From positions 1-41,549 of IMG/VR virus record IMGVR_UViG_3300037463_000028: a stretch of 41,549 nucleotides of DNA; one strand, 5' to 3'. Of this stretch, positions 25,609 through 32,719 are shown in pieces. The translations under genes were made by a program, and so were the position numbers. Each line of letters opens with the position of its first letter. Position 1 is the first letter of the stretch. The notes under the pieces are model-generated. The model did not search any database. It saw nothing but the letters and a program-made list of their open reading frames with translations, and was not told the origin of the DNA. The stretch is from a virus (Duplodnaviria > Caudoviricetes).

Positions 25609-28600
25609 CAGCCTCCGGAGAAGGCCGCCGCGGGGGTGCGCAGGCCGATCTCGATGCCGCGGGCGGACTGTCGGCTCACTTCCTCCGCGGAGGCGCCGAC
25701 AGGACCGTAGAAGTTGTTGTTGACGTTGACGGACCGCCCGCTGATGGTGCCGCCCACCGGCCCGCCGGTACCAGGAGCCGCACCCCCGCTGCCGAACGCG
25801 CCGTTCAGTCCCGACAGGTCCGAGGTGCGCCCGAAGATGCCTGCGCCGTCAAGCGCGGACACGGCGCCCATACCAGCAATGAGCATCTGACCGGTATTAC
25901 CGGAAGATGCAGCGCCAAAAAGCGACCCCAGCGTAGTCGCCCCAGTGAACCACCCGATACCTGGGATCAGCGAACCGGCGATGCCGCCCAGGATGGTGCC
26001 CCAGAGCGCGCCCTTCTGCTGCCGCCGTCCCATCGCGCCCGTGAGAGCCAAAAGCGAATAGATCTGGCTCATCATCGCCCCGACGCTCATCTGCACCGCG
26101 CCCAGGGTCAGCTTCACACCTTGCAGGCCGGAACTGATGGCCGCGCTCATCTGCTGCGCGATGGGATCGATGACGGCCGCCTTGATGACGTTGCGCATCT
26201 GGTTGGCGGCAAGGTCGGCGAGCATCCCGCGCAGCATCCCGCCGAAGTTGCGGGTGAAGTTGCGCGCGGAGTCGCCGATGCGACCGCTGAACGCCTCGTC
26301 GAAGGCGGTGCGGAAGACGCCCTGCACGGAGTCGGCGACGCGGTTGACCTCGCGCTCATAGCGCTCGATCTCGCGCCGCTGGTCTTTGGAGAACTCCTTC
26401 AGGCGCTTTAGCATCGACTTGGTGGCCGCTTCAGTCGCCTTGTCCTGTGCCTTCAGCACCGCCTCGAACCCGCCGATGCCGCCGGGGATGTTGAAGCCGA
26501 CCGCGCCGAGTATCGTGTCGATGACCGCGTTGCCGAACGCCTTCTTCTCGCGCTCGCCGCCGAGCGCCTCCTTCACGTCCTTGATCTGCTTCTTGAGCGT
26601 GTCCGCTTTAACGGCGGCCTCTTCGAGACGGCGTACCAGTTCCTTCATGTACGGGGTCTGAGAGGCGCCCTTGCTGGCCAGCAGGTCCGCCACGGCAAGC
26701 CGGACCCGCTGCAACTCGGTCAGCTCCTTCTCGCCGGTCAGGAGGGCGTTGTACTCCGCTTCCTGGTGGCGCACCCGCTTTTCGAGGTCCTTGGTCACAT
26801 CACGGAGGGCGTCCGCGGTCTCCTTGCGGGCCTTGCGGATGGCTTCCTCACCGGCCTGGACTGTCAGCACGTGGCGGATCTGTGCCGCTTCGGCCTCGCT
26901 CAGCTTGTCCTTGGGGTCCGCATAGCGCTGCTCGATATCGAACTGCTTGACGGCCCGCAGGGGGTCGTCCGGATCGATCCGGGACAGAGCGAGCTGCTGA
27001 TTGACGCCGCGCAGGGAGGCCGCGTACATCTCCGCGTGCGCCTTGGCCGCGGCTGCCGCTTCCGCGTTCTTCTTCAGGGCGTCGGCCTGCTGTGCCAGGG
27101 AGATGGCCAGGGCCTTGACCTTCGGGTCCGCCTTGGAAAACTCGCCGTGCAGCAGCGCATACCGCATCGCGGCTTCCTGGGACTGGTCGCCCCCGAGCGC
27201 GACGGTCTTGCGCAACCCATCCAGGTGCGCCTGAAGGTTGGCTGTTGCGGCTGCCGCTTCCGCCTTCAGGGCTTCAGCGCGCTGACGGGCCGCAGCCGCC
27301 GCGGCAGCCGCGGCGCGAGCGTTCGCCGTGTTCTTGTTTCCGCGCTCCGCCGCGGCATGGACGCTGGCATACGCTTTGGAAACGTTGCCCAGCTCGGTCT
27401 GAAGGCTTTGAAGCTGCGTGAGCTGGTCCTTGAGACCAGGGATATCCTTGTCGCTGGCATTCAGGGCCGAAGCATAGTCGGACCCGTTGTTGTACTTCAG
27501 GCGGAGGCTTTGAATCGCTTCCTGCCGCTCGGTGATCTTCTGGCGCAGGTCGCGGATCTGCGCCTCCATATCCCGGAAGGCAGGCGACTCGGCAGCCTTG
27601 ATTCCGCCCTGGCTGTTCTGGGTCCACAGGTCGGCGATCTTGAGACCGGCGAGTACGGCAATCGCGGCCGCCAAGCCGTAAGGCCCGACGGCCGCCAGGC
27701 GCGCGGCGCCGAGCGCGCTGGCAAGCTCGCGCACCTGGTTCGCCATCAGCGCGATCGGGCCGGCAGCCGCAGCGCCCGCGCCCAGAACGACAAACAATTC
27801 CTGCGTCTGACCGGGAAGGTCGGAGAACGCACGGGAAGCGTTCTGTGCCTCGCCGGCCAGGCGGTTCAGCAGGCGCGCGGCGACAGGACCGGCCGCGTCG
27901 CCGATGCGCGTCAGGCTCTCGTTGATGGAGTCGGCCGCGTTCTCGAACTCGTTGGACAGTCCGCCGGTGGCCTTCTTGGCCTTCTCCAGTTGGGAGACGA
28001 TCCGGGTGATGGCCTGCTCCGAAGAGATGCCCATCTTCTGGATCGCTTCGGTGTCCGCCGTGCCGAAGGCGGCTTGCAGCGCGGCCCGGATCTGCGGCAC
28101 GCGCTCGGCGAGCTGGTTGATCTCTTCGGCGGAAACCTTGCCCTTGCTCTGGATCTGCGACAGGGCGAGGATCACCCCGTCCAGGTCGGCTTTGCCTTTG
28201 CCGACCGTGGCGAGCGCGTTGCCGAACGCCATCAGCGAGCGCTTTGCCAGGTCCGCCGACAGGCCCGCCGCCTGAAGGTTGATGGAGCCGCGCAGCGCTT
28301 CTTCCAGCCCCAGGCCGGGCAGCTTCGCCACTTCCTTCAGCTCCGCGAACTGCCGCTCGGCTTCTTCCGCCGAGCCGGTGACGGCCACCAGGCCGCGCTT
28401 CAGCCCGTCCATCCGGACGGCTGCATCTACCGACGCTTTGCCCAGGGCGACCAGCGGGACGGTCACCATCGCGGAGAGCGCGGTTCCCATCTTGGTCAGG
28501 CGCTCGGTCAGCCCTTCGGCCGCCTTGCCCGCCTTGTCGGTGCCCTGCTTGATCTTCTCGCCGGCTTCCTCGCCCTTCGCGCCGGTCTCGTCCAACTGCT

Positions 28601-28682
28601 TCCCGGCCCGGTTCATGGCCGTGCTGAAGTTGGATAGGTCCGCCTCTACCACCGCCCGGATCTTCGCTACTTCGACGGACAC
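25605..28682 (-). CDS. Tape measure protein
   Basis: 1025 aa, Ala-rich helical; ALSQIQSKGKVSAEEINQLAER. Confidence 0.93.
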   Translation of the reverse strand: MSVEVAKIRAVVEADLSNFSTAMNRAGKQLDETGAKGEEAGEKIKQGTDKAGKAAEGLTERLTKMGTALSAMVTVPLVALGKASVDAAVRMDGLKRGLVAVTGSAEEAERQFAELKEVAKLPGLGLEEALRGSINLQAAGLSADLAKRSLMAFGNALATVGKGKADLDGVILALSQIQSKGKVSAEEINQLAERVPQIRAALQAAFGTADTEAIQKMGISSEQAITRIVSQLEKAKKATGGLSNEFENAADSINESLTRIGDAAGPVAARLLNRLAGEAQNASRAFSDLPGQTQELFVVLGAGAAAAGPIALMANQVRELASALGAARLAAVGPYGLAAAIAVLAGLKIADLWTQNSQGGIKAAESPAFRDMEAQIRDLRQKITERQEAIQSLRLKYNNGSDYASALNASDKDIPGLKDQLTQLQSLQTELGNVSKAYASVHAAAERGNKNTANARAAAAAAAAARQRAEALKAEAAAATANLQAHLDGLRKTVALGGDQSQEAAMRYALLHGEFSKADPKVKALAISLAQQADALKKNAEAAAAAKAHAEMYAASLRGVNQQLALSRIDPDDPLRAVKQFDIEQRYADPKDKLSEAEAAQIRHVLTVQAGEEAIRKARKETADALRDVTKDLEKRVRHQEAEYNALLTGEKELTELQRVRLAVADLLASKGASQTPYMKELVRRLEEAAVKADTLKKQIKDVKEALGGEREKKAFGNAVIDTILGAVGFNIPGGIGGFEAVLKAQDKATEAATKSMLKRLKEFSKDQRREIERYEREVNRVADSVQGVFRTAFDEAFSGRIGDSARNFTRNFGGMLRGMLADLAANQMRNVIKAAVIDPIAQQMSAAISSGLQGVKLTLGAVQMSVGAMMSQIYSLLALTGAMGRRQQKGALWGTILGGIAGSLIPGIGWFTGATTLGSLFGAASSGNTGQMLIAGMGAVSALDGAGIFGRTSDLSGLNGAFGSGGAAPGTGGPVGGTISGRSVNVNNNFYGPVGASAEEVSRQSARGIEIGLRTPAAAFSGGW

Positions 28683-28920
28683 TACCCCTCACCCCCTCGC
28701 GCACGCAGCTGCGCCCGCTTCATCAACGTGGGCCGAACCTCGGCCTCGACGTCCTTGGCGACCAGCGCCCGGTTTCGCCACAGCAGCGGCTCGTCTTCAA
28801 CGCCCCACGGCGGGACGCCCAGTTCCTTGGCCGCGATCAGGTCGGCGTACCAGGAAGGCGCCGCCGCACCCCGGCCTTCGCTCAGGAGCGCTTGCCGGAG
28901 TTGGGCGCGCTCGGAGGGGA
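28682..28920 (-). CDS. Tail assembly chaperone, -1 frame extension (gpT-like)
   Basis: Overlapping -1 ORF (WYADLIAAKELGVPPW) between the chaperone and tape measure genes. Confidence 0.65.
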
Positions 28921-29352
28921 CACGTTCTGATCCTCCTGGATCTTGGCCAGCACGAAGGACATCAGGTTGAGGTCCACGTCGGCCGCTTCCAGGCCCTCGC
29001 GGGTCAGCTCTACCGGCTCGCCGTCGTTGGTGGCGTCCCACTCGGCCACGGCATCCAGGAAGCGATCCGTGGTGGTCTCGGCCAGGCCGCCGATGGCGCT
29101 GATCTGCGCGTCCAGCTCGGCCAGCGCCGCGGCCAGTTCCGGGTCTTCGGTCTGGGTCTCCGGTGCAGCGTCCGCTGCCTTGGAGCGCGCCTCGGTCAGC
29201 GCGGCCTTTGCCTTCGCGCCGGTCTCGGCCAGCTCCCGCACCTTGCCCGGCGTGAACCGGGCCGGGCGGTACTTGATCGTCAGCGTGTCGCCGTCGATGT
29301 CGATGGCGAGGGTGCGCAGCATCTCCCGCCGCTTCTTGAAGTCGAGTGCCAT
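28882..29352 (-). CDS. Tail assembly chaperone (gpG-like)
   Basis: Position; ATG 29352 with AAGGA RBS. Confidence 0.75.
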   Translation of the reverse strand: MALDFKKRREMLRTLAIDIDGDTLTIKYRPARFTPGKVRELAETGAKAKAALTEARSKAADAAPETQTEDPELAAALAELDAQISAIGGLAETTTDRFLDAVAEWDATNDGEPVELTREGLEAADVDLNLMSFVLAKIQEDQNVSPPSAPNSGKRS

Positions 29353-29381
29353 GATGTTTCCTTGCGAGCGCGGCTGGCGCG

Positions 29382-30617
29382 CTAGTCGCCAGCCGCCGTC
29401 AGTTCTGTCGCGCCGGACCACAGCCGCACGTCCGCCAGGCGGACGGTCGGGGTCGCAGGGGCCGCGTGGCCGTTGATGTTGTCGCCGAAGACGGCCGCCA
29501 CCCAGCGGAACTCGATGACCTGCGCGATCCCGTTGCCGCCGGGGCCGATGGTCTCTTTGCCGTTGGTGCCCCAGAAGTTCCACTGCTCCGGGATCGTCGC
29601 CGTACCGGTCACCGTGTCGGCCCGCCCGGTCGGGTCGCTCTCGCCTTCGAGGAGGTAGTTGTAGCCGACCGACGCGGTGTAGTTCCGCCAGGCCATGATC
29701 TGCCAGTGCGTGATGTCTACCGGCTCGTCGAAGCGCAGGCGGCACTCGATGGCCGCCTCGTGCCCCGCCGCCGCGAGACAGGTGGCCGTCTCGAACGTGT
29801 CCGGCGTCGGCGTCGCGTAGATGCCCGCCGCGGGGGCGTCCCCGTCGTCGAGGTTGGAGGTGGGGGTCCAGGCAGTATAGGTGAAGGGATCGAGGCTGGA
29901 CGCCCGGCTGCGCAGGCGCCATTCCAGCGCCCCGCCCCCGCCGCCCGGCCCGCCGCCGCACTCGCTGCGTTCGAGCACTTCGAAGGGCGCGTACACGCCC
30001 TCCTCCGGCCCGAGCAGGCCCGCCGCCTCGAAGCAGCGCAGGTAGTACCCGGCGCCCACCACGGCGCCGGCGCGCACGCCCTGCCAGGGGCAGTGCAGCA
30101 GGCCGCGGCCTTCGTCGAAGCGGGCGCGGAAGGCCCAGCCGTGGCCGCCCTTTTCCGCGCCGCCGCTGACCGCGTTGTCCGATATCCGGATACCGGACCC
30201 GGACGCGTCGCCGGGCCTGCGGATGTCCCACGGCTCGAACCCGCCGCCGGCGGGCTGCGCGCGGTCGCCGTCGCCGCTGTCTTCCAGGAAGGTGGTCTCG
30301 CCGTGCTCGATCTGGCCGGCGGTGCTGCTGACCTTGAGGATGAAGGAAACGCTCGCCGCGCCGCCGTCGCGGGTGGCGTCGGTGCGCAGCGAGTAGGTCC
30401 CGGCCGCAGCGCTGGGCGGCGCGATCACGCGCCAGTAATCCGCGTCCGGGTCGTACTCGACCTGCCAGTCCTCGTAGATCCCATCCGGGTCCGGGAACAC
30501 TGGAAGGTCGCCGTAGCTGGTCAGGAACTCGGCGACCTGTACCCCGCCGGGGCCGACGATCTCCAGCGTGTCGGGTTCAGACGGGGCGAGGGAGCCGGTG
30601 CTTTCCGCCCCGATCAC
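29382..30617 (-). CDS. Ig-like/beta-rich domain ORF, in frame with the tail tube gene
   Basis: APPSAAAGTYSLRTDAT...SVSFILKV; weak RBS of its own. Confidence 0.75.
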   Translation of the reverse strand: MIGAESTGSLAPSEPDTLEIVGPGGVQVAEFLTSYGDLPVFPDPDGIYEDWQVEYDPDADYWRVIAPPSAAAGTYSLRTDATRDGGAASVSFILKVSSTAGQIEHGETTFLEDSGDGDRAQPAGGGFEPWDIRRPGDASGSGIRISDNAVSGGAEKGGHGWAFRARFDEGRGLLHCPWQGVRAGAVVGAGYYLRCFEAAGLLGPEEGVYAPFEVLERSECGGGPGGGGGALEWRLRSRASSLDPFTYTAWTPTSNLDDGDAPAAGIYATPTPDTFETATCLAAAGHEAAIECRLRFDEPVDITHWQIMAWRNYTASVGYNYLLEGESDPTGRADTVTGTATIPEQWNFWGTNGKETIGPGGNGIAQVIEFRWVAAVFGDNINGHAAPATPTVRLADVRLWSGATELTAAGD

Positions 30618-30644
30618 CTGCCCCGGCTTCCCGCAGGGCAGTCA
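30618..30644 (-). promoter_or_regulatory. UGA plus hairpin, candidate recoding signal
   Basis: TGA CTGCCCTGC GGGAA GCCGGGGCAG. Confidence 0.55.
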
Positions 30645-31703
30645 GCCCGCCGCGGCGATCAGCGCTTCCGGCTCCTGCCCGCTGGCCACGTCCGTACCGG
30701 CGGCCCACGTGGATGCCGGCAGCGCGGAGCGGATGCGGATCTTCAGGAACCCGCCGAGGGTGGCGTCGTCCACGGCCTCCAGGTCGTACATGCCGCCGTA
30801 CACGTCATCCTTGTCGCCCCGGTCGGGGTTGGTGACGTTGAAGGGCATCGTGACCTCGAACTCGTAGGTGCCGTTGGTGCCGTCGCCGATGTTCGGCCCG
30901 GCCGCGTGGAACTGGTAGTAGCGGCGCGCGGCGTTGCGCAGCTGGCGCATCATCGCATCCGAATCGCTGTCCTGCTCTACCTCGATGTGGACGGTGCATT
31001 TGTTGGGCGTCTCGACGAGCGCCGTGAAGCTCTTATCGTCCCGGCGCTTGGGGAAGAGCGGCTTGCGTCGCCCGCCCAGGACGATGTTGCCGTCGAAGAG
31101 GCGGCCCAGAAGCCCGCCGGAAAGCCCGCCGATCGTGGTGGCGACGTAGTGGTTATCCTCGTCGGCGGAGATCGGGATGCAGGCGATCTTGGTGGGCGAG
31201 TCGTTGGTGACGACGCCCTCCTCGGCCAGGCGCCGCCCGATCATCGTGCCGCTGATGTCCATCGCGGTCGCCGAGAAGGAGAACGTCAGGTCCGTCACGG
31301 AGCCATAGGCGAAGCGGGACGCGCCTACCGCGTCATCGCCGTTCTCGACCGTCAGGAACTTGACGTCATCGGGCTGGTCCGCCTTCAGCAGCCACACGTA
31401 ATCGTGCGCCTGGTTCGCGCCCGCGCCACCGACCGGCGTGACCGTCGGCACGCCCGCCGACGAATACAGCAGCGGGATCAGGTCGTTATAGGCCATGTAG
31501 CCGGTGATGGTGCCGATGGTGTGCGCGCCCTTCTGGCGCCGCGTGAAGGTGGCGATCTTGCTGCCGCGCGCCTTCAGCATCTCGCTGGGCTGGACCGGCT
31601 TTGGCAGGATGCCGAAGGACGCCAGTTGCAGGTTGGCGATGACGGCCGCCGCCGTGCTCTGGATGCCGATCTTGGCCTTCTCGTAAACTGATGCTCTTTC
31701 CAT
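30642..31703 (-). CDS. Major tail (tube) protein
   Basis: Position between tail terminator and chaperones; 353 aa, beta-rich. Confidence 0.8.
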   Translation of the reverse strand: MERASVYEKAKIGIQSTAAAVIANLQLASFGILPKPVQPSEMLKARGSKIATFTRRQKGAHTIGTITGYMAYNDLIPLLYSSAGVPTVTPVGGAGANQAHDYVWLLKADQPDDVKFLTVENGDDAVGASRFAYGSVTDLTFSFSATAMDISGTMIGRRLAEEGVVTNDSPTKIACIPISADEDNHYVATTIGGLSGGLLGRLFDGNIVLGGRRKPLFPKRRDDKSFTALVETPNKCTVHIEVEQDSDSDAMMRQLRNAARRYYQFHAAGPNIGDGTNGTYEFEVTMPFNVTNPDRGDKDDVYGGMYDLEAVDDATLGGFLKIRIRSALPASTWAAGTDVASGQEPEALIAAAG

Positions 31704-31727
31704 AGTGCTTGTGCTTTCCTGCCAGCC

Positions 31728-32186
31728 CTACGGGGCGGCGTAAACGAAGAGGCGGTACTCCCCGCCGAGACGACGATAGATGACGCCGCCCTCGGCGGCT
31801 TCGGGCGGGGGCGCGAACGGGCGCTCGCGGTGGCTGCCGGCGACCTGAAGGCCGCCCTGGACGCCTCGGGCCTGGTTATCCTGGTCGCCGAACAGGGCGT
31901 CGATACGGTTGGCCAGCGGGCCGAGGGACACGAGGGATTCGGTCTGCCCGACGGCGTAGATCCGGACCAGCGGGCGCGTGGCCACGCGCAGCGCGCCGTT
32001 GCCGTTGATGTCCGGAGACACCAGCACGGAGAAGACCACGAAGGGATACTCGGCGCCCTCCGGAGCGGCGCCCTCGTACACGCCCGGCCCGTCCCCCTCG
32101 GGGTCGGGCTGGACCAGGGCGGCGAGCGCCGCGTCATTCTTCAGGCGCAGGTACAGGAAGGTGATGAGGTCCGCGACTTCGTTCAT
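31728..32186 (-). CDS. Tail terminator (DUF3168-like)
   Basis: L..DAALAALV...VYEGAAPEGAEYPFVVF. Confidence 0.8.
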   Translation of the reverse strand: MNEVADLITFLYLRLKNDAALAALVQPDPEGDGPGVYEGAAPEGAEYPFVVFSVLVSPDINGNGALRVATRPLVRIYAVGQTESLVSLGPLANRIDALFGDQDNQARGVQGGLQVAGSHRERPFAPPPEAAEGGVIYRRLGGEYRLFVYAAP

Positions 32187-32719
32187 GTGCCTGCGGCTCC
32201 TTCCTTGACGGCCCGGCGCAGCGCGCTTCCGACGGCCTGCTCGAACGGCTGCGTCTGGGCCTCGGCAGCGGGGCCGAGGAACGGGCGTGGGGCGGTCTTA
32301 CCGTCCGCGCTGCCCAGCTCTTGGGAGGCCGCGTATTCCTGGCTCGCATCCACGTGGGCCACCTTGCCGCGGCTGGCCGTCGGCGAGCTGGTGGCGATGT
32401 TCGCGGCCAGGCCGCCGTACAGGTTCGCGGGCGCCTCGCCGGGCGCGGAGGCGCGGTGGATGCGGCTGCCGATGATGAAGCGACCGTCCCCGTCGCGGTC
32501 CAGCCCGAGCGGGCCGAAGCGCTTGGTGTTGCGGCTGCCGCCGACGCGGGTGACGTTGCCAATCCGGTACCAGCGGCCGGTCTTCGGCCCGGTCTGGATC
32601 GCCGCCTTCGCGCCGGCCTCGATGTTGAAGGCGGCGGTGATGACGACTTCCGCCACCTCGCGCTCGGCCGCGCGCCCGACGGCCGCGAAGCCGTTCTTGA
32701 TGGTGACGCGCGTGGCCAC
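32183..32719 (-). CDS. HK97 gp10-like tail completion protein
   Basis: HRASAPGEAPA...YA...E.G...PRPFL.PA. Confidence 0.85.
   Translation of the reverse strand: MATRVTIKNGFAAVGRAAEREVAEVVITAAFNIEAGAKAAIQTGPKTGRWYRIGNVTRVGGSRNTKRFGPLGLDRDGDGRFIIGSRIHRASAPGEAPANLYGGLAANIATSSPTASRGKVAHVDASQEYAASQELGSADGKTAPRPFLGPAAEAQTQPFEQAVGSALRRAVKEGAAGT

Follow-up and report, generated by a model that had tools for sequence, protein, structure and literature searches.

An in-frame coding extension behind the UGA stop of a tail-tube gene: a plausible recoding site in a temperate siphophage genome

The tail-tube gene of the tailed virus in IMG/VR record IMGVR_UViG_3300037463_000028 ends in a UGA codon, and the frame behind that stop remains open for several hundred codons. 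Is the open frame a separate gene, or do some ribosomes pass the stop and make a longer tube protein? An initial annotation of this DNA had proposed that readthrough or selenocysteine (Sec) insertion at the UGA sets the ratio of long to short tubes. The window analysed here is the whole virus record, 41,549 bp with a 127-nt terminal repeat. We consider ordinary UGA readthrough, yielding a minor 773-aa tube, the likeliest single reading, with about an even chance of being right; a separate, coupled start is less probable and Sec insertion less probable again. These gradings are our judgement from the counts and were not computed. Judged from its sequence, the locus is a plausible recoding site in one genome.

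The tube stop and the frame behind it

The 353-aa open reading frame (ORF) that ends at the UGA is a tail tube by its predicted fold. The top Foldseek matches of its model (predicted local distance difference test, pLDDT, 52.5) were the siphophage tail tubes 8xan, 8ed0 and T5 pb6, and comparison with PF18906 clusters gave Atlas feature scores of 0.98 and template modelling (TM) scores of 0.80-0.90. A Pfam search at E 0.01, which included the PF18906 hidden Markov model, gave no match to the tube, and among its relatives only the distant P0014 carries PF18906. The gene lies between the tail completion gene and the chaperone and tape measure genes.

Behind the TGA at 30644-30642 come eight sense codons, LPCGKPGQ, and then a GTG at 30617, the frame staying open to a TAG at 29384-29382. 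The open frame behind the stop comprises 419 codons; read through, the product would be 773 aa with the junction G-X-L-P-C. The initial annotation's account of the stop, the eight codons and the in-frame 411-aa ORF was correct, with no differences in a second assembly, and its 773-aa length and X-L-P-C junction follow from the frame. The second assembly is a Logan contig that spans 28500-32500 without a different letter at a depth of about 15; it probably comes from the same data set and serves as a check on the assembler only. The extension is real coding DNA: G+C content at its third codon positions (GC3) is 0.93, and its codon-usage scores match those of the other late genes in the tube frame only. 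The locus thus has a UGA-C stop followed by an in-frame coding extension, the arrangement expected of programmed readthrough of the Q-beta A1 type.

The tube stop itself appears to be ancestral, since nine close tube proteins (41-61% identity) have 356-376 aa or the same endpoint, with all ends falling within about 25 residues of the same point; the end of the nearest relative (61%) comes one residue sooner. More distant tube genes were found at 16 loci in 15 of 401 Armatimonadota genomes (one locus fragmented, one weak). Nine of these end in TAA, five in TAG and two in TGA, and none has an extension; behind the two TGA stops the frame is open for 0 and 3 codons. TGA ends 3 of 13 related major capsid genes.

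The initial annotation had called the extension Ig-like (immunoglobulin-like). Its coding character and frame hold, while an Ig fold was matched by no family or fold search. There was no match to an Ig family in Pfam, PHROGs or NCBIfam, and Foldseek was uninformative with an AlphaFold model of pLDDT 28.6, in which four strands fall at residues 60-102. For the first domain, Atlas rows for He_PIG/BACON scored 0.83, below the tool's bar, and Pfam gave NPCBM_assoc at E 0.059; our view of residues 6-105 as Ig-like also draws on a sequence pattern. For the C-terminal part the top Atlas rows were F5_F8_type_C at 0.87-0.88, again below the bar, and the C-terminus of the homolog P0011 matches PF00754 at E 0.01. 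The Ig-like and sugar-binding character of the extension is thus a lead only, drawn from models and weak family scores. Kelch matches were discarded, as they summed one short YDP..W motif over repeats.

A search of 1.84 billion representatives gave the extension a single homolog, P0011. It is called from an ATG that corresponds to residue 43 of the extension, within the first beta-rich domain, and the similarity reaches that ATG. This hints at what a gene caller does with a frame that lacks a start.

Table 1. Features at the tube locus and elsewhere in the window, in window coordinates
Feature	Position	Strand	Basis
Tail tube, Phage_tube_2-like, 353 aa (37.7 kDa), ending in TGA	30642..31703	-	Fold matches
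UGA stop with C at +4 (GGC UGA CUG)	30642..30644	-	Sequence, second assembly
In-frame 24-nt spacer (LPCGKPGQ); 9-bp hairpin, loop GGGAA 9 nt after UGA	30618..30641	-	Folding
GGGAAG, Shine-Dalgarno-like, 9 nt upstream of GTG, within hairpin loop	30627..30632	-	Anti-Shine-Dalgarno pairing
CCGGGG at +16..+21, weak 3-bp stem	30621..30626	-	Sequence and spacing equal to one host-class selD SECIS group
GTG at codon 9, earliest common start codon in the extension; 24 kcal/mol to open	30615..30617	-	Predicted folding
Alternative long stem, +14..+63, sequestering the GTG; expected with a ribosome on +1..+11	30579..30628	-	Predicted folding
Extension domain 1, about residues 6 to 105; beta-stranded, perhaps Ig-like (lead only)	30327..30626	-	Low-confidence model, Atlas, Pfam
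Extension middle part, ~49% identical to P0011, Cys/Gly linker at end	29955..30326	-	Homolog alignment
Extension C-terminal part, possibly galactose-binding-like (F5/8 type C; lead only)	29382..29954	-	Atlas, P0011 C-terminus
Tail completion gene and 24-nt spacer, internal control	31704..32186	-	Stop, eight codons, in-frame start
Probable tail assembly chaperone G/GT pair, after the extension and before the tape measure gene	28682..29352	-	Overlapping -1 frame
Portal fused to Mu gpF-like head morphogenesis domain	39760-36926	-	Single 944-aa ORF

RNA structure and the GTG at 30617

A hairpin starting directly after the UGA had been described in the initial annotation, and it folds as claimed. 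The bases from +1 to +24 reach -13.9 kcal/mol (z -2.48, matched by 3 of 200 shuffles), making this the strongest 24-mer behind the 28 stops (the next is -9.5), and only 0.55% of 21,705 late-region 24-mers are as stable. Its predicted pair probability is 0.15-1.0 with downstream sequence only and at most 0.02 when 30-100 upstream bases are included; in the models the hairpin is one among several context-dependent folds. With the first 9-12 bases under a ribosome, the prediction changes to a long stem at +14..+63 (-26.7 kcal/mol, z -1.8, in the top 1.8% of windows). An intrinsic terminator was ruled out, a U tract being absent behind the hairpin.

As in-frame neighbours are ordinary in this genome, the frame alone proves nothing, and the question becomes whether the extension has a start of its own. 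We compared GTG 30617 with 24 other start entries and 188 internal ATG or GTG codons, taking the anti-Shine-Dalgarno (anti-SD) sequence from a 16S gene of the probable host class. Shine-Dalgarno (SD) pairing at the GTG is -6.6 kcal/mol, stronger than at 14 of the 24 other entries, with equal pairing at 16% of the internal codons. Opening the site is predicted to cost 24.0 kcal/mol, more than at any of the 24 other entries, an equilibrium value past which a scanning ribosome could still reach the GTG. The next highest costs, 23.0, 21.6 and 21.1 kcal/mol, are at overlapping stop/start pairs, and 14% of the internal codons are as buried. The predicted cost is still 24.3 kcal/mol with everything up to UGA+9 held open by a terminating ribosome: the GTG would stay closed with the first hairpin melted because the second stem forms. 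Further candidate starts at codons 48 and 72 are no better. The annotation's 'poor' ribosome-binding site (RBS) is therefore wrong for SD pairing and right for structure, the site being the most deeply buried of the starts compared.

Two further observations concern RBSs. The sequence AGGTGATC at 30619-30612 on the minus strand is an 8-nt match to the inner anti-SD that overlaps the GTG, with no start at a usable distance downstream. The RBSs of the phage are mostly (A/G)GAAAG and pair with the CUUUCU nearest the 3' end of the 16S tail in the host class (L036:3002-3020), not with its CCUCC core.

Readthrough and its rivals

If readthrough operates here, a few ribosomes would decode the UGA through a near-cognate tRNA, probably that for Trp or Cys, to give a minor tube subunit of 773 aa (~82 kDa) alongside the normal 353-aa tube. 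The RNA structure behind the stop is predicted to hold GTG 30617 closed in both folds, leaving the extension without an efficient start of its own. The long subunits would co-polymerise into the tail and show a beta-rich, possibly Ig-like and sugar-binding arm, which may help the particle to hold polysaccharide of the host surface or of biofilm, as is thought for the long tube of SPP1. Were this so, annotations would be wrong to list extensions of this kind as hypothetical genes in their own right, and the decoration of virions would hinge on the termination efficiency or the selenium of the host.

We favour readthrough because the GTG is the most buried start tested while the extension is coding in the tube frame, because 14 of the 16 extension-less distant tube genes end in TAA or TAG and this one in UGA-C, and because the gene call of P0011, the extension's only homolog, begins at an internal ATG. 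The tube family also decorates its tubes in other ways, with N-terminal in-frame domains of about 175-225 aa at 5 of the 16 distant loci. According to the excerpted text of PMC7026636, UGA is the stop with the most readthrough, and leaky termination goes with C at +4, mostly from eukaryotic data. In SPP1, the excerpt of PMC6316719 states, UAA ends all abundant virion protein genes.

Several results weigh against readthrough. Codon usage does not mark the eight spacer codons as coding: their score is exceeded by 91.5% of coding 8-mers and reached by 139 of 415 intergenic 24-mers. In-frame neighbours without an intervening stop occur at 3 of 16 adjacent late gene pairs, the pair of tail completion gene and tube among them, and related phages have many such neighbours. 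TGA is the terminator of 13 of the 28 genes in this genome. Neither the tube nor the extension had relatives in scans of viral, metagenome and genome contigs or of annotated phages; the extension also had none in the 401 Armatimonadota genomes or at 127 retrieved loci, and a degenerate motif scan returned seven loci, none of them a relative. The stop, frame and hairpin are thus seen in a single genome. A fused long tube was absent from 7,991 scored candidates, in a weak search. In the open-access literature we found no report of readthrough or Sec insertion in a structural gene of a tailed phage.

A good part of this evidence suits a different explanation, in which GTG 30617 begins a gene in its own right, the 411-aa ORF, which is translationally coupled to the tube gene and whose product is a non-covalent, low-copy decoration or a minor tail protein. 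The SD sequence would lie hidden in the hairpin up to the moment when a ribosome that has reached the tube UGA melts the stem or re-initiates. We think this less likely than readthrough, and it is the strongest of the rivals. GGGAAG, which lies 9 nt before the GTG and accounts for the -6.6 kcal/mol, resembles the GAAAG and GGAAG sites of the phage; the hairpin runs exactly from stop to start, as would fit a coupling element; the spacer does not look coding; and RBS-hiding structure opened by an upstream ribosome is a described coupling mechanism in the excerpt of PMC12548453. The gene pair just upstream has the same layout, the TAG of the tail completion gene being followed by exactly eight sense codons and then, in frame, by the tube ATG, a real start. 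Yet the GTG is predicted to remain buried when the first hairpin melts, the same excerpt reports a negative correlation between coupling and structure just after a stop, and one in six or so of the internal codons pairs equally well with the anti-SD. P0011 is not called from the equivalent start. A coupled gene also leaves the UGA-C unexplained, given the stops of the extension-less relatives. Readthrough and a coupled separate start can coexist. Far less probable than either is ribosome hopping in the manner of T4 gene 60, whose bypass features we took from the excerpt of PMC7026636: peptidyl-tRNA-Gly would leave the GGC before the UGA and land on an in-frame GGC at codon 16. The site does offer a Gly take-off codon, a stop, a stem-loop and, some 50 nt further, a matching codon directly preceded by GGAAAG, but GGC is so common here that chance would be expected to supply a match within 16 codons, and the excerpt of PMC5009743 knows no natural case of hopping over an in-frame stop. 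We give equally little credence to the idea that the TGA arose in assembly, or by a nonsense change that recently interrupted a formerly fused gene of 773 aa. TGA is one base change from several sense codons and there is one genome to go by; against this, the second assembly is identical at this position, the nine close tubes end near the same point, and the long fused form was not found in the weak search described above.

Decoding of the UGA as Sec by host SelB and tRNA-Sec, with inefficient insertion setting the long/short ratio and U-L-P-C lying in the linker, is improbable in our view. So is its more elaborate version, in which a deliberately weak Sec insertion sequence (SECIS) would let insertion compete with termination and thereby set the share of tubes carrying the 420-aa adhesion arm, as a selenium-dependent decoration switch. 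Of the genes for Sec use, which the initial annotation had wanted checked in the host, selA, selD and tRNA-Sec were scored across the probable host class and are often present: selA scores over the cut-off in 43 of 71 Armatimonadia genomes, selD in 46 of 71, and the tRNA-Sec model matches 58 of 71 with some cross-matching. selA occurs in 8 of the 11 genomes that carry close integrase relatives and in only 1 of the 4 in-class genomes with capsid relatives, which are incomplete. We collected 21 selD sites (25 regular-expression hits less 4 off-target) and 22 fdhA sites (of 26 loci) from the class, falling into three sequence groups. Like these genes, the phage locus has an in-frame UGA, structure directly behind it, a CC-GG loop sequence at +16 and a UxxC, a frequent Sec motif in the excerpt of PMC13188914. 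Its CCGGGG (Pro-Gly, codons 6-7) equals the apical-loop sequence and spacing of one selD group, a match noticed only after the phage sequence had been seen, and the fold of 40 nt resembles host selD, its lower stem starting at +1 and its G-rich loop lying at 17 nt. Among 213 background TGA codons, 9 are followed by the motif and 8 by a Cys codon at +3, this site being counted in both. The stem itself is where the likeness ends. The upper hairpin has 3 contiguous pairs and -4.1 kcal/mol, a value reached by 86 of 213 background TGA codons, while all 43 host sites lie at -7.0 to -14.6 kcal/mol and the model published in PMC13188914, as excerpted, requires an upper stem of 4-16 bp. In a test of geometry, 39 of the 43 host sites and 15 of the 213 background sites pass and the phage site fails. 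In +12..+63 or longer context the pair probability of a SECIS-type stem is 0, other folds out-competing it. A looser filter passes 77 of the 213 background codons, and alternative phage folds put loops at 17 and 35 nt. The hairpin that the initial annotation had in mind is not a SECIS, its loop lying 9 nt after the UGA against 16-37 nt, with G in the first two loop positions, in the published model and 17-19 nt in most host-class folds. The phage UGA falls in a domain linker of a structural protein with no redox fold. As for Cys or Trp at the UGA position in relatives, none of the nine close tubes has either in its last 15 residues, but all of them stop there, and no homolog spans the junction. 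Of the annotation's two ways of setting the long/short ratio, then, ordinary readthrough stands as the likeliest reading and Sec insertion is set back by a SECIS-type stem weaker than that of any host site.

Known systems and the phage genome

Siphophage SPP1 (gp17.1/gp17.1*) and the Listeria phages A118, A500 and PSA, with their long major tail proteins, make a short and a C-terminally extended form from one tube gene, as proposed here, and their extension ORFs likewise lie between the tube and tail-chaperone genes. In SPP1 the extension has 87 aa, is FN3-like and non-essential, and is proposed to bind cell surfaces, with a ratio of 3:1 (excerpts of PMC6316719 and PMC5009743). These phages use +1 frameshifting, at CCCUAA in SPP1, and frameshifts are also the subject of the excerpt of PMC5221750. 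Here the extension is in frame 0 behind the UGA, so no frameshift can join it to the tube and the locus does not belong to the SPP1 frameshift class. It also differs in its size of 420 aa and its several domains, and is known from sequence alone. For the decoding, the parallel is the Q-beta coat/A1 gene, which codes for a major virion protein and has an open frame running on behind its UGA stop; Q-beta is where readthrough was discovered (excerpt of PMC8310308). That case concerns a capsid protein of an RNA phage, whereas readthrough is proposed here for the tail tube of a double-stranded DNA siphophage. Long and short tubes made by frameshifting are documented for tailed phages and stop readthrough for Q-beta. 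Among coupled genes, MS2 coat-lysis and f1 VII-IX resemble the locus in having a hairpin that lies over the SD of the second gene and that the terminating ribosome can reach (excerpt of PMC12548453); they differ in that a second stem is predicted here to hold the start closed after the first melts.

Other tubes of the family show further in-frame arrangements. The N-terminally fused tubes, in Armatimonadota prophages (L034/L024, L028:67-733, L029, L116 and L119), carry a beta-rich stretch with no stop before the tube. In L028 and L029 an ATG preceded by an SD-like sequence stands inside the fused frame where the tube would normally start; on this sequence evidence two in-frame starts may yield long and short tubes in these prophages. 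In L024-L029 and P0014, about 95-135 aa are inserted within the tube, a further mode of decoration in the family. Four of the nine close tubes (P0004, P0005, P0006 and P0012) have Gly-Phe or Gly-Asn within their last six residues, two of them ending in PGFS. About 4-6% would be expected for each, and the observation was made post hoc. Such ends could reflect -1 slippery sites (G-GGU-UUU or G-GGA-AAC), and recoded extensions would then be a trait of the family.

The phage is a temperate siphophage, judged by its gene content: the window encodes terminase, portal, protease, capsid, connectors, tape measure, holin, amidase, repressor, replication protein and integrase. Its host is probably a bacterium of the class Armatimonadia, because all five capsid relatives in named genomes are from Armatimonadota and close integrase relatives occur in 11 of 71 genomes of Armatimonadia, the class of the hosts of the capsid relatives and of G001. 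Sec use is widespread in Armatimonadia, with Sec-type SelD and FdhA and compact SECIS loops at 17-19 nt. Phage DNA is present in two runs, from soil and biocrust metagenomes, which may be one data set. A recoded genetic code was ruled out, as TGA terminates nearly half of the genes, several times overlapping the next start. The window holds no Rfam families and no tRNAs, hence no phage-encoded tRNA suppressor, and no attP match to host tRNA-Sec was seen. In the probable chaperone pair, the last 160 nt of the first ORF lack a canonical X XXY YYZ heptamer. The fusion of portal and gpF-like domain is also full length in L014, and several relatives retain the portal part alone.

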